A DNA stretch of 35,956 nucleotides from a virus (taxonomy: Duplodnaviria > Caudoviricetes), in IMG/VR virus record IMGVR_UViG_3300012231_000030, positions 1 through 35,956 of that record; one strand, given 5' to 3'. Positions 14,587 to 33,921 of this stretch are shown piece by piece (the stretch's first letter is position 1; each line of letters begins with the position of its first letter). The notes beneath the pieces were generated by a model. It searched no databases. It was not told the DNA's origin and was given only the letters and a program-made list of their open reading frames with translations. The position numbers were made by a program, and so were the translations under genes.

Positions 14587-14752
14587 CTTTATCTAACTCC
14601 TTTCGAGCAGCTTGAATTATATGAATCACGTTCTCATATTGGCGGAAAGCACTTTTAGGCCATTGACCTTGTGTATAAATAAAGTCTATTGACATCTTAG
14701 CACCTTCAAGAGCTTGTCGTATGATTTCTTTATTCATTGTCAACCTCCCCAC
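14570..14752 (-). CDS. Hypothetical protein
   Basis: Short ORF right after polA; the likely start is MNKEII after GGGAGG. Confidence 0.5.
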   Translation of the reverse strand: MGRLTMNKEIIRQALEGAKMSIDFIYTQGQWPKSAFRQYENVIHIIQAARKELDKDEKDS

Positions 14753-16683
14753 GAACTCATTAATTTATATTTCATAAGATGTGGCACTTTAAAGGAAATA
14801 GCATTCTCAGTAACTTCTTTAATCAGCTTAGCTTCATGTTCACTATTAACTGATGCACCAATTTCATCATACAAAGTAATTAATAAATCAATCTTTTCTT
14901 TCCATAGAATAATTAAGGCTTTCTTCATCTGTTCGGCAGCTGATCCTTGTACTACAGAATTCATAGCTTTATGCAAATGAGCCCGGCGAATAGATCCATA
15001 TGCTTTCATTGCAGTTTCTTTGCCCTTGATTGGAAACTTACCCCTTTGAAAATGAGTAGGTTCCCACATATTAAATCTTCTACGTCTACCCAATATAGTT
15101 TTAACAAAGCCTCTTTGATCAGCTACTTCCATGCAATACTCAAGAAGTTCTTTCATAAATGGAAAGCCTCTGTCATATGATGCTAATATACCATCTGCTT
15201 GTGATAATGAAAGCTTTAACTTAACAGCTGTTTTCTTTCTACCCATACCGTAGGCTCTAGCTAAGTTGATTGTCTTAGCTTGATCTCTTTCAATAGGATC
15301 ATTTCTAACTCTATTAACCATATCCATAACCATATCATGAAAATCTGTAGCAGGATTATCAATATACAATTGCCTAGCTTCAGCAGCTCCTGTAAGCTTT
15401 AACAAAAAGGCATAATGTAAACTGATCCTTGGTTCCTGCTGGCTTAAGTCTCCTTTGAACCATTGTCCACCATTTCTTGCAATAAATAATGATCTAACAA
15501 GAGGCCCGAGTATTTTGTGTCTTGTAGGTATTTGACTGAGATTAGGATTACTACAAGCGACCCTACCACTACGAGTACCAGCAACATCGTCGCCAGACAT
15601 AAAGCTAGTACCGCGCGTCTGATACCATTGAGGGTGGACTCGACCCTTGTAAGATCCGTTGAGTACAACTGATTCAATGAAGTCTCTCCTTATTTTTTCT
15701 TGTTGTCTATATTCACCTATTCGAATTAATTCTTCTACTCCACTCTCTAATAAAAACAAATTAGTAACTGAATCATTATCCTTTTCTGTTTTAGGTGGAT
15801 CTAAACCTACTTCTCTTACTAATTCACCTAATTGCAACGGAGAGAAAGGATTCAAATTCGGTGCCCAATTTCGTATAGCTGCTAGTTTCAATTGACAATC
15901 ATCTATTAGCCTAGCATTCTCGGCTTCAGCTTTAGCAAGGTCAACATCAATCCCTTTAATTCGCATGTCAAAAAGGACTGGAGTTAATTCACACTCTAAC
16001 TCAAATACTTCACGTAACTCTTCTTCTTCAATCATAGGTTTTTGCAATTGAAATACTTCATAAGTAAGCATTGCGTCATCTTTTGCATATTCACCTACTA
16101 TATTAACAGGTAATCTCCAAAGCTTAGACCAATCAGGTTTACCATTACGTAATGCATAGCCAGCACTAAGTAATAATCCTTCAATAACTTCACGTGTCTT
16201 AGGCTTTAATCCATAATCTTTAGACAATGATGCTAAGGAATAAGACTGTTTCTCTTCGTCTATAAGGGATTCAACTACTTGTATGTCTACACACCAAGCT
16301 TTAACTTCTATACCTAATGACCATAAAGCTTCTAAATCATACTTGGCATTGGCAAATATAACAGTAACCATAGGATTGGATAGTATTATCTTTAGCCAGG
16401 CTTTAACTTGTGACCAATTGTTTATATTACCTTCCTTATGTCTTAAAGGAAAATACATACTACATCCAGGATAGTATACGGATATACCCACTACTTTAGC
16501 TTGTTCATAGACAAAGCCAGGGCCTATATCACTTAACCTAGGATCATGTGTTTCTGTATCCAATGCTAACTCAACTATTTTTGATGGATCTGGTAAGTCT
16601 AAAGCTCTTTCACTATAAGTTCGTGGGTCTCTCCCTTGTACATTACTTTCTTGCAAGCTGTGTTCTGTAGCATCATATAGCAT
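14740..16683 (-). CDS. polA: Family A DNA polymerase with 3'-5' exonuclease
   Basis: ExoI DTET, ExoII NAKYD, ExoIII YAKDD; TRSGR...NPNLSQIP; motif A DLSQQEPR; motif B RDQAKTINLARAYG; QGSAAE; motif C YDEI. Confidence 0.95.
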   Translation of the reverse strand: MLYDATEHSLQESNVQGRDPRTYSERALDLPDPSKIVELALDTETHDPRLSDIGPGFVYEQAKVVGISVYYPGCSMYFPLRHKEGNINNWSQVKAWLKIILSNPMVTVIFANAKYDLEALWSLGIEVKAWCVDIQVVESLIDEEKQSYSLASLSKDYGLKPKTREVIEGLLLSAGYALRNGKPDWSKLWRLPVNIVGEYAKDDAMLTYEVFQLQKPMIEEEELREVFELECELTPVLFDMRIKGIDVDLAKAEAENARLIDDCQLKLAAIRNWAPNLNPFSPLQLGELVREVGLDPPKTEKDNDSVTNLFLLESGVEELIRIGEYRQQEKIRRDFIESVVLNGSYKGRVHPQWYQTRGTSFMSGDDVAGTRSGRVACSNPNLSQIPTRHKILGPLVRSLFIARNGGQWFKGDLSQQEPRISLHYAFLLKLTGAAEARQLYIDNPATDFHDMVMDMVNRVRNDPIERDQAKTINLARAYGMGRKKTAVKLKLSLSQADGILASYDRGFPFMKELLEYCMEVADQRGFVKTILGRRRRFNMWEPTHFQRGKFPIKGKETAMKAYGSIRRAHLHKAMNSVVQGSAAEQMKKALIILWKEKIDLLITLYDEIGASVNSEHEAKLIKEVTENAISFKVPHLMKYKLMSSWGG

Positions 16684-16985
16684 TTTTCACAAGGCTCCTC
16701 TGTGATATACGCAGTGTATATCTTTTCTACGTCATGACACCTTGCTATTGCGTTCATTTCAGCATGAATCGCTTTACAACTTAGATTTGCATCTAAATAA
16801 GCTGGACATGGATACAAAGGATCACAATGCGGTTTACCCCTTGGTTGCCCATTATATCCAGTTGCTATTATATTACCATATGTATCTACTAAAACACAAC
16901 CAACAGATTTTTTAAGGCATGTACCCCTAGCTGCTAAACACAGGGCTATTGCTATCATCGTTTGATCGAGTCCTATTCTCACCAC
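16599..16985 (-). CDS. dCMP deaminase family protein
   Basis: VGCVLVD...IIATGYNG, HAE and PCEKC Zn-binding motifs. Confidence 0.9.
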   Translation of the reverse strand: MVRIGLDQTMIAIALCLAARGTCLKKSVGCVLVDTYGNIIATGYNGQPRGKPHCDPLYPCPAYLDANLSCKAIHAEMNAIARCHDVEKIYTAYITEEPCEKCYMMLQNTACKKVMYKGETHELIVKEL

Positions 16986-17808
16986 TAGCCTCCATCAATG
17001 CTTTCTTAGCTATGTCTTGAACTATTTGTTTATCTGAACCAGTACCAACCATTTTAGCTATTTCTAGCATAGTTAATTTAATAGATGGCCATTTCCATAT
17101 ATGCCAAGGCTCATATCTATAACGTTGAAACGGCATAGTTTCTAGGTCCAGTTTATCCCATTGATCTTCATAGATATGACGTGATCCTGCATTAAGGAAA
17201 CAATAACCAAGTTCTACAGGATGCTCTAAACCCGATGCTATCTCTGCTGTTATGCAGGCAAAAGTAAGCATGTCATACGGTAGACCCATACCTGCGTCAG
17301 AACTACGCATGTTCACGACAGTGAATATGTTGTCATTTCGTATAAGAAACTGCATACTTATAGTACAAGATATATCTCTTGCCGGCAATGGGTTTCTTCT
17401 CCACAAAGTCATAACAGCTTGACGAGTATTCCTATCCTTATTAAGGATGTCTCTAACATACTGTTGCTGATGCTTAAAGTGTGGACCATAAGCACCGGCT
17501 AATATCTTACCATCATCACTATATGGAGCCTGGATCCTAGCTACTTCAGGCGACCAGTTAAGTCTATTGGATCCTTCCAATACCCACATAGATTCTGCAG
17601 CCATATATATCCATGAAGTATTAGGCTTAACAGTAACTATAGGATACTGCATATCATATGCCATTGAATGATTCAATATTTCAAATGACACACGACCTTT
17701 AGCACCAGTAGACTGTTGAGGCTCTACTGCTTGACCCGATCGTTTAATTTCTTCAATAGCTATAAGCCAACTATCATCAGCTGTTGCATGAATCAGTTTC
17801 AACTTCAT
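16927..17808 (-). CDS. Thymidylate-synthase-superfamily enzyme with dCMP-type specificity residue (putative dCMP methylase/hydroxymethylase)
   Basis: YSDDG...GAYG, DRNTRQAV, catalytic Cys in DISCT, RSSDAGMGLPYD (Asp where E. coli ThyA has Asn177), SRHIY. Confidence 0.85.
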   Translation of the reverse strand: MKLKLIHATADDSWLIAIEEIKRSGQAVEPQQSTGAKGRVSFEILNHSMAYDMQYPIVTVKPNTSWIYMAAESMWVLEGSNRLNWSPEVARIQAPYSDDGKILAGAYGPHFKHQQQYVRDILNKDRNTRQAVMTLWRRNPLPARDISCTISMQFLIRNDNIFTVVNMRSSDAGMGLPYDMLTFACITAEIASGLEHPVELGYCFLNAGSRHIYEDQWDKLDLETMPFQRYRYEPWHIWKWPSIKLTMLEIAKMVGTGSDKQIVQDIAKKALMEASGENRTRSNDDSNSPVFSS

Positions 17809-18064
17809 CTCCTTCAAATGAAAAACTCTCAACAACACGCTGAGAGTATCCGCTAATATCTATCCAATGATCTGGCTCATTTGGATCACCAGTACAAACA
17901 CGAGCTATTTTACCTAAGATCATATCAAGACCCTCTTTTTGAGAGTTTGTCATTTTATTATAAGCTGAGCCCTCTCTTACTATTTCTTTAAGAGTTTGTG
18001 CAACCGCAGCATACTCTATAAATCTACCATGTGTCTTTTGACGATCAGGAATAGTAGTCATCAA
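17777..18064 (-). CDS. DUF6378-like small helical protein
   Basis: RQKTHGRF...MILGKIAR...GDP...DHWIDISGY signature; this family is often found beside nucleotide pyrophosphatases. Confidence 0.75.
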   Translation of the reverse strand: MMTTIPDRQKTHGRFIEYAAVAQTLKEIVREGSAYNKMTNSQKEGLDMILGKIARVCTGDPNEPDHWIDISGYSQRVVESFSFEGDEVETDSCNS

Positions 18065-18483
18065 TCTACTCCTACTATTGTGTATACACCATCCAGTCCT
18101 TGATTCATATTCATCAAATCACTAAGAATAGGAGGTTCCCATCCTTCAGGCTTGACAACATCAAAGGTAGAGCCGCGCTCGCTTTCGTCCGGTGATTGAG
18201 CTCTAATTTTATTCATGTTAGCTTCATGTACACGCTTCCAAGCTTCTTCGAAATTAAAACCATGCAAGTAAGCTGTGCCCATAGCAACATAGACTATGTC
18301 AACTAAAGCATCCATTTGTTTTTCAAGATTACCTTCTTGCCAAGCACGAAGATATTCTTTGATTTCTTCGTCAAGAAAACCACTTCTGAACCAGAACAAA
18401 TCATCAGGTAGATCGCGTGGTCTACCCTCGTATGTCAATTCAAACTTCTGATGAAAGTCTATTATATCCTTATACATTGTCAT
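18061..18483 (-). CDS. MazG / PRA-PH-like all-alpha nucleoside triphosphate pyrophosphohydrolase
   Basis: DFHQKF...EEIKEY...DALVDIVYVAMG...VHEANMNK...VVKPEGWEPP. GAGGAGG RBS. Confidence 0.85.
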   Translation of the reverse strand: MTMYKDIIDFHQKFELTYEGRPRDLPDDLFWFRSGFLDEEIKEYLRAWQEGNLEKQMDALVDIVYVAMGTAYLHGFNFEEAWKRVHEANMNKIRAQSPDESERGSTFDVVKPEGWEPPILSDLMNMNQGLDGVYTIVGVD

Positions 18484-18922: not shown

Positions 18923-19423
18923 TCAGCTAACCACCTCCTCTTCAGCCGGTGCTTCTTCAAGCTCTGGCATCTCTTCGCCATCGTCTTCGAGAATCTCTTC
19001 AGTCACAATTTTCCTGGTCTTACGAGATCCAGGGTTCTTTGTGGGAGGACGCTTGAACACATTCTCAATCTTCTCACCAGTGATAGGATCGATCAGATGC
19101 TCAACACCACCGCCGGCGCGACCGCGTGCCTTGCCGCCGAGATTATCCTTCGTCTGAACAAGGATATGTTCTGGCAATTTGCCCAACATTTGCCTGTAGT
19201 ATGCCACAAAACCCGGCACAACTTCAGGACCCTTAGCTCTCGGAGAATACGTCTTAATATCTGCCTGAATATGATCGATAATCTGATCTTCAGAGACAGC
19301 AGTCTCGTTCTTACCAAGGTTCCAAACAGCCACAAGAATAGCTCCCGCCTGAGCAGGGACCTGTTCAACGAGCTTCTTGAGATTATCTTGGTTAATCTTC
19401 TCTGCGAATTTATAATAAAACAT
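18923..19423 (-). CDS. Putative winged-helix-like DNA-binding protein with acidic tail
   Basis: Start MFYYKF at 19423 (AAGGA RBS, promoter just upstream). PAQAGAIL...AYYRQML core, a basic linker and a very acidic C-terminus. Confidence 0.55.
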   Translation of the reverse strand: MFYYKFAEKINQDNLKKLVEQVPAQAGAILVAVWNLGKNETAVSEDQIIDHIQADIKTYSPRAKGPEVVPGFVAYYRQMLGKLPEHILVQTKDNLGGKARGRAGGGVEHLIDPITGEKIENVFKRPPTKNPGSRKTRKIVTEEILEDDGEEMPELEEAPAEEEVVS

Positions 19424-19483
19424 AGGATATTTCTTCCTTCTCTTTGGGTTGACTAACGTTGTATTTCCCAACGTTACAGGTAA

Positions 19484-19538
19484 ATTATAGCACGTTTGGT
19501 TTGAAATGTAAACTGCCAATTTCGCATACCTGCTATGC
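19484..19538 (-). promoter_or_regulatory. Sigma70-type promoter with AATTGGCAG box (copy 2) and GCATA-N5-TATGC palindrome
   Basis: AATTGGCAG-TTTACA-N17-TATAAT with extended -10 TG. Palindrome at 19524-19538. Confidence 0.85.
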
Positions 19539-19592
19539 AAAAAAGACATATCTAAAGGACCTTCCAGAGGTTTGAGGAGAGATGCTATTGGT

Positions 19593-33723: not shown

Positions 33724-33921
33724 ATGGCTATGGTTGAGAAAGTAACTACAATACCTGGATTTAATCCTTCGGGTAATCCAACTGTTAATGAAATTAAAGA
33801 AATGACAGAAGAACTTATCAATTATATTCAAGATAATGTACCTGAAGGACGCCGTCGTTCACTTGCTTTAACTAATTATGAACAAGCAGCCATGTGGGCT
33901 GTTAAAGCTTGTTTTCCATAG
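33724..33921 (+). CDS. Acb2/Tad1-like helical-hairpin protein (candidate signalling-nucleotide sponge)
   Basis: FNPSG...VNEIK....ELI...GRRRSLALTNYEQAAMWAVKA. Confidence 0.55.
   Translation: MAMVEKVTTIPGFNPSGNPTVNEIKEMTEELINYIQDNVPEGRRRSLALTNYEQAAMWAVKACFP

Follow-up and report, generated by a model that had tools for sequence, protein, structure and literature searches.

The window analysed here, the 35,956 nucleotides of the Caudoviricetes record IMGVR_UViG_3300012231_000030, carries a minus-strand cassette of five serially overlapping genes, which encode a MazG-like protein, a DUF6378-like protein, a thymidylate synthase (TS) homologue, a deaminase of the deoxycytidine monophosphate (dCMP) type and a family A DNA polymerase (PolA) (Table 1). 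On an evenly balanced judgement, this cassette supplies 5-hydroxymethyl-dCTP, which PolA would build into the DNA instead of cytosine as a defence against restriction. That the DNA holds a modified cytosine of some kind is likely; 5-hydroxymethylcytosine (5hmC) carries the even judgement just given and 5-methylcytosine (5mC) is a doubtful candidate, so that hydroxymethyl is favoured over methyl by odds of roughly two to one. Every reaction and the DNA base are what we infer from the observed gene content and gene swap, together with the active-site residues, the fold and the placement in the tree. 5hmC is the best reading because the TS homologue possesses the hydroxymethylase residue Asp145, groups with hydroxymethylases and is closest to MilA in its modelled fold, and because two complete relatives have no dihydrofolate reductase (DHFR).

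The cassette is of a known, published kind, and its new part is the exchange of a kinase gene for DUF6378, a swap of which no report was found in the literature. An earlier interpretation of the same stretch, the sequence-only reading, is partly supported as a whole. Its series of five overlapping genes holds, with successive overlaps of 1, 32, 59 and 85 bases (starts as in Table 1), and modified cytosine in the DNA, one of its alternatives, matches the best reading. It overlooked Asp145, a residue that speaks against methylation as the outcome.

Table 1. Features of the cassette, with positions in the window
Feature	Position	Strand	Evidence
MazG-like all-alpha NTP pyrophosphohydrolase (PRA-PH), DR2231-like	18061..18483	-	PF01503 E 8e-14; phrog_671; PDB 3nl9 and DR2231 E ~1e-6
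DUF6378-like	17777..18061	-	PF19905 E 1.8e-5, 25.4 bits, under the Pfam cut-off of 27.1; ESM Atlas 0.94 to DUF6378 clusters
TS homologue, dCMP-type, predicted dCMP hydroxymethylase	16927..17808	-	PF00303 E 5e-17; Cys148, Asp145, Asp179
Codon of Asp179 (ThyA Asn177 position)	17272..17274	-	alignment
dCMP-deaminase-family enzyme	16599..16985	-	PF00383 E 9e-20; PDB matches; HAE and PCxxC intact, extra Cys/His
Family A DNA polymerase (PolA) with 3'-5' exonuclease domain	14740..16683	-	PF00476 E 3e-44; PF01612 E 6e-9

Active site, phylogeny and fold of the TS homologue

The TS homologue of the window retains the TS fold with the catalytic Cys, Glu and Tyr and the phosphate-binding Arg/Ser, and the canonical ThyA residues Asn177, Leu143 and His147 are replaced by Asp, Asp and Thr, respectively. 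Its start at ATG 17808 was chosen from homologues, the longest open reading frame beginning at GTG 17838, and the numbering Cys148, Asp145 and Asp179 that follows from it coincides with that of T4 gp42 by chance. Residues were counted over 93 aligned sequences, comprising the window TS and 92 of 101 homologue hits, with nine short or distant hits excluded. Asp179, at the ThyA-Asn177 position, is invariant (93/93), as are Asp145, three residues before the catalytic Cys, and the Asp at the ThyA Asp169 position.

An Asp at the Asn177 position is the published determinant of dCMP recognition (PMC13326640; eLife 70021), and the predicted specificity of the window TS for dCMP is well supported. The sequence-only reading had drawn this specificity from the same codon, and both its assignment and the E. 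coli motif that it quoted agree with the alignment. It had also contrasted an SC with the PC of ThyA at the catalytic Cys. The SC is present; however, the preceding residue varies across the alignment (Pro 80, Ala 8, Ser 4, Thr 1), and SC is therefore a local variant of PC that has no diagnostic signal.

The residue that bears on the product is Asp145. In T4 the D145N variant yields no product, Asp145 activates the attacking water, and the residue has been called a hydroxymethylase signature (PMC6400193); Asp/Glu at this position has also been given as the criterion for hydroxymethylases, Asn169 being the mark of hydroxylases (PMC13326640). An Asp three residues before the Cys is common to T4 gp42, SPO1 gp29, PaMx11 gp51 and MilA, where Xp12 has Asn and ThyA has Leu. 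Xp12-type methylases are recognised by a non-acidic residue at this Leu143 position. The dUMP hydroxymethylases of the SPO1/PaMx11 type have Asn at position 177, where the window TS has Asp, and RB69-type dCMP hydroxylases, which form 5-hydroxy-dCMP (5hodCMP), have Asn at the ThyA Asp169 position, where all 93 sequences have Asp.

The phylogenetic placement proposed in the sequence-only reading was carried out on 62 rows (the window, 52 loci hand-picked from those collected and 9 rows from cultured phages), by a quick LG+G4 search that gave long-branch warnings. The Xp12 enzyme and T4 ThyA separate from the hydroxymethylases, with which the TS family of the window groups (SH-like approximate likelihood ratio test, SH-aLRT, 99). 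The structure model of the TS has a predicted local distance difference test score of 93.7, its top seven fold matches are all MilA chains, and MilA is also its best sequence match in the PDB. By TS, the closest cultured relative is AXL3, with 36% identity.

Proposed pathway

In the pathway proposed, the TS homologue would transfer a hydroxymethyl group from methylenetetrahydrofolate to dCMP, with Asp179 selecting cytosine and Asp145 activating water. Tetrahydrofolate would be released, so that no DHFR would be needed; no DHFR was found in the window, in its syntenic relative G001, in G006, G007 or AXL3, and Xp12 has one. The MazG-like enzyme, a predicted dCTPase and/or dUTPase, would hydrolyse dCTP and/or dUTP, thereby removing the competitor and feeding dCMP. 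DR2231, which it matches, is a dUTPase, and a dCTPase activity may be proposed solely on the analogy of T4 gp56. The modified dCMP would be phosphorylated by a host kinase or by an unrecognised phage protein, for which DUF6378 is a positional candidate.

The deaminase would convert part of the dCMP to dUMP for the host thymidylate synthase, as T4 cd does, and the ThyX of AXL3 and of G008 (L060) favours such a dUMP-producing role. Its preference for one substrate lies beyond what sequence comparison can settle, because methyl selectivity is polyphyletic. A deaminase is nearby in 57 of the 65 clusters with 1 kb downstream. The window deaminase is 55–63% identical to those of its clade, 42–47% to those of family members L030, L060 and L073, 36% to AXL3 gp27, and 27% to T4 cd as well as to the deaminase of Xp12; the identity of PolA to clade relatives is likewise 55–63%. 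To the sequence-only reading, a dCMP-modifying enzyme beside a dCMP deaminase looked contradictory. This objection falls away, as T4 encodes both gp42 and cd, and AXL3 has the TS, a deaminase and ThyX.

Exchange of the kinase for DUF6378

The window, a podophage contig that is incomplete, has a structural module of the LUZ24/SU10 type and a replication module of the Pam3 gp33/gp34 type. In G001 (42,873 bases; CheckV 100%; the opening 55 bases recur), tail genes occupy the part missing from the contig; this relative encodes a GcrA homologue, from which an alphaproteobacterial host may be suspected. The TS subfamily of the window comprises 417 confirmed stretches in IMG/VR, and its cultured phages are AXL3 and two pelagiphages. 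A set of 94 loci was assembled from the window, 6 first loci, 79 of the best 80 of the 417 stretches and 8 further loci, which gave 70 clusters at 90% TS identity, 66 of them with at least 1 kb upstream.

Beside the TS in these 66 clusters, a P-loop kinase without DUF6378 occurs in 54 and DUF6378 without a kinase in 12; both or neither occurs in none. As 11 of the 12 DUF6378 clusters form one clade (SH-aLRT 99), the remaining one, L073, grouping elsewhere with the kinase-bearing L018 and L045 (98), the pattern would correspond to about two independent swaps and not to 12 events. By eye, outside the 66-cluster count, a DUF6378-like gene was also seen directly before the TS in L123–L125.

No kinase match to Pfam or PHROG was obtained among the 55 open reading frames of the window. 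The lack of a deoxynucleoside monophosphate kinase, pointed out in the sequence-only reading, is thus upheld by these searches and by a family profile, in the window and in the complete G001. A weak kinase match in G006 lies within an 815-aa frame and is probably the P-loop of a primase. Failure to recognise a kinase is compatible with modified DNA, because Xp12, with 100% 5mC, has no match to the family profile either. An older report is said to describe a 5-methyl-dCMP kinase activity induced by Xp12, which would mean that such kinases can be unrecognisable. ThyX and DHFR were likewise without a match in the complete G001 and G007, in searches whose positive controls matched, and no ThyX was found in G006.

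DUF6378 is a family of 19,775 representatives at E<=0.001, and in an alignment of 75 members a Gly, a Lys, an Arg, two Asp and a Tyr are invariant, an enzyme-like pattern. A MazG-like fold was considered for it: there is no sequence match in the PDB, comparing its profile with that of the adjacent MazG yielded a probability of 0.4, and no known partner domain was found in 33 longer members. The PHROG label "phosphofructokinase" was not trusted. A C-terminal tail of MazG, considered as a relic of the kinase start, was discarded as unsupported, the tail being missing in close relatives.

It is a tentative proposal, and an unlikely one as a joint reading, that DUF6378 does the job of the lost kinase or that the clade reroutes through hydroxymethyl- or methyl-dCMP to 5-hydroxymethyluracil (5hmU) or thymine. 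Under the first branch, DUF6378 may be a new small enzyme bringing modified dCMP to the triphosphate; for the second, no demonstration with an Asp145-type enzyme was found in the literature. The swap gives a starting point for functional tests of a phage family that is very large and unannotated, and it is relevant to the way in which modified nucleotides get into DNA in the absence of a recognisable phage kinase.

Other genes of the family cassettes vary as well. An S-adenosylmethionine (SAM) methyltransferase, which may add a further base modification, is present in 40 of the 50 kinase clusters with 3 kb upstream versus 1 of 9 kinase-less ones; examples are found at L003:6668-7492, L030:5761-6618 and in relatives, and no report of it in such cassettes was found in the literature. 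The family kinase often has about 330 aa and an extra C-terminal domain (L030:7007-7999, L093:414-1409), and the phage G homologue matches the uracil-DNA glycosylase family PF03167. Some cassettes carry, between MazG and the kinase, a glycosyltransferase-like gene (L042:6335-7393, L002:5740-6738), a lead from the ESM Atlas with PF13524 on 12% of one cluster, which counts in favour of 5hmC but had no BLAST match to T4 beta-glucosyltransferase. It mostly lies beside a C5 DNA methyltransferase, and several of the corresponding TS proteins have Asn at position 168.

Restriction-site depletion and DNA composition

Restriction sites were counted in 11 sequences. Among 6-base palindromes, that of EcoRV shows the strongest depletion in the window (1 versus 11.6 expected; Poisson P ~1e-4, ~0.007 after 64 tests, calculated by hand) and in G001 (0 versus 9.7), and it holds this rank in 34 kb of T4 too. 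The EcoRV site is one of two C-containing 6-base palindromes that are fully cut on 5hmC DNA, and in the family member L129 (ct3Et533) the five lowest 6-base palindromes are all of the kind fully cut on such DNA. Three comparison phages, VPv64, phiM5 and tf, were assumed to have canonical DNA (TS is unannotated in phiM5 and tf, and VPv64 has no annotation); in all three the EcoRV site is outside the five lowest, and they nearly lack sites that 5hmC blocks. Site depletion may serve as a flag for C-modified phages. Here it supports modified cytosine weakly and post hoc, and it has no bearing on methyl versus hydroxymethyl. CpG is under-represented in the window (0.67), the values being 0.92 in G001 and 0.84 in L124 or L110.

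Evidence against 5hmC and alternative explanations

Several observations weigh against 5hmC as the product of the cassette. In the TS, Ser occupies the ThyA-168 position, a feature of the Xp12 methylase, and T4, SPO1, PaMx11 and MilA have Asn there. The equivalent of T4 Ser94, two residues before the catalytic Tyr, is Gly, and for this reason the window TS, although predicted to work like T4 gp42, is not classed as a gp42 member; this position is not Ser in the SPO1 or PaMx11 hydroxymethylases either, and it is Ser in the Xp12 methylase. In the sister-subclade phages L124 and L125, Asn takes the place of Asp145 although the flanking genes are the same, the landmark branches of the tree are long, and L123 shows no MazG beside the cassette. 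The profile built from 40 kinases of TS-family loci and phrog_761 found no match in the window, the complete G001 or G007 (the control G010 matched), a search that an unrelated kinase fold would escape. As to the restriction sites, the next four lowest 6-mers in G001 are sites blocked by 5hmC, the HaeIII 4-mer, also 5hmC-blocked, is reduced (47 versus 60.8 in the window, 141 versus 188 in G001), and 6-mers of A/T only are not depleted in the window or G001 (0.89, 1.10). The EcoRV site is outside the five lowest in AXL3 and L124, and EcoRV also cuts 5hmdU DNA. Finally, 5 of 7 tested deaminase-linked TS enzymes made 5-methyl-dCMP (5mdCMP) (10.1101/2024.12.05.627091).

The alternative that best withstands these data, possible and still doubtful, follows Xp12: the TS would methylate dCMP, 5mC would replace cytosine, and a methyl-selective deaminase would turn part of the 5mdCTP/5mdCMP into a thymine nucleotide, making a second thymidylate synthase unneeded. 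Besides Ser168, the motif around the specificity Asp is common to the window TS and the Xp12 enzyme; L124 and L125 have the Xp12-type Asn, G001, G006 and G007 have no ThyX, and Xp12 also lacks a kinase-profile match. Among the active deaminases of such contexts, 34 of 56 were 5mC-selective, a polyphyletic trait for which no sequence signature was found in the source (10.1101/2024.12.05.627091). On the other hand, Asp145, the tree position and the fold indicate a hydroxymethylase, DHFR is missing, identity to the Xp12 enzymes is only 27% for the TS and 27% for the deaminase, and ThyX, redundant under a 5mC route, is kept in AXL3 and G008. The in-series route of the sequence-only reading, from dCMP through methyl-dCMP to dTMP, is in print in part: methylation followed by deamination to dTTP has been proposed for Xp12-type phages, but with triphosphates as substrates and together with complete replacement of cytosine by 5mC, and deaminase B5 converts 5mdCTP to dTTP and is inactive on monophosphates (10.1101/2024.12.05.627091). 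Its methyl product is opposed by Asp145.

It is improbable that this reversed thymidylate route is the only function, modified dCMP being barred from DNA after the loss of the kinase and deaminated to dTMP, so that virion DNA stays canonical. Such a scheme would suit a clade that lacks the kinase and the SAM methyltransferase and is nested among kinase-bearing relatives, the missing ThyX (G001, G006, G007), and the depletion of some 5hmC-blocked sites in G001. It requires a methyl product, contrary to Asp145 and the missing DHFR; moreover, Xp12 reaches full replacement without a kinase detectable by the profile, and several sites near-absent in the comparison phages are not so in the window.

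No more probable is a route to 5hmU through cytosine, in which dCMP would become 5hmdCMP and then 5hmdUMP, the host thymidylate kinase would act on the latter, and MazG and DUF6378 would remove dTTP. It reconciles Asp145, Asp179, the adjacent deaminase and the kinase loss in one series, and seven screened deaminases made 5hmdU from 5hmdC in vivo (10.1101/2024.12.05.627091). Yet the known 5hmdU phages compared (SPO1, PaMx11) rely on dUMP hydroxymethylases of the Asn type, AXL3 DNA is cleaved at A/T sites but shielded at G/C sites (PMC7504290), 5hmdU DNA resists only ~8% of enzymes (PMC7653180), and a dTTPase is without evidence. Database labels imply a plain ThyA that would take up the dUMP made by the deaminase; this suits a gene order that fits the textbook dTMP pathway and was so read in the AXL3 paper (PMC7504290), but it is very hard to credit given the invariant Asp at the Asn177 position, Asp145, the replacement of the His that follows the Cys, and the separate ThyX of AXL3.

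Neighbouring genes

Just upstream of the cassette, a gene at 18923-19549 (-) with no Pfam or PHROG match is kept across the clade. A NUDIX hydrolase occupies the MazG-like slot at L064:6815-7306 and in relatives, and in the T7-like pelagiphage HTVC200P (L007:7894-9172) the TS and a kinase have no deaminase or MazG nearby. Elsewhere in the window, an Acb2/Tad1 hairpin domain gene follows the major capsid gene (33724-33921, +; PF24729 E 2.5e-14) and is likely, by its domain, a sponge against nucleotide-signalling defence. A C1q-like domain is found in a virion-module protein (1536-2111, +; PF00386 E 8e-6).

Comparison with known systems

An Asp177-type TS with a deaminase, PRA-PH and PolA has been described as the signature of cytosine-modified metavirome contigs (MetaGPA), where 104 of 149 deaminases lie within 3 kb of a TS; on unmodified contigs the count is 17 of 277. 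The top five co-localised domains are TS, MafB19-deam, PRA-PH, DNA_pol_A and its exonuclease (10.1101/2024.12.05.627091). Both this co-occurrence and the presence of Asp177 on modified contigs were reported elsewhere (eLife 70021). All five domains are matched in the window, with the Asp177 TS less than 3 kb from the PF00383 deaminase; the window clade differs by DUF6378 and the lack of a kinase. A product of this TS subfamily was not identified in the literature found, and the supplement of 10.1101/2024.12.05.627091 could hold assays of it.

The hydroxymethylcytosine pathway of T4 resembles the cassette in Cys148, Asp145 and Asp179 and in having a hydroxymethylase beside a deaminase and a dNTP pyrophosphatase. 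In contrast, the window TS has 29% identity to gp42 over 103 aa and lacks Ser94 and Asn168; gp1, td, frd and the glucosyltransferase were not found in the window, and PolA stands against the family B polymerase of T4. Xp12, the DNA of which is 100% 5mC (PMC7653180), shares an Asp177-type TS adjoining a deaminase and a PRA-PH domain, the Ser at 168 and the lack of a kinase-profile match. It differs in the Asn three residues before the Cys, an adjacent DHFR, a deaminase without the extra Cys/His, a position on the ThyA side of the tree and the low identity of both enzymes.

AXL3 (gp27-31) has, besides the 36% identity of TS and of deaminase, the same active-site Asp residues and a MazG-like hydrolase, and its DNA resists 35 of 37 restriction enzymes, being cut only at A/T sites (PMC7504290), a further point for the 5hmC reading. 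It differs from the window phage in being a siphovirus and in encoding a kinase, a separate ThyX and a SAM methyltransferase. AXL3 is the cultured member in which the base could be named directly.

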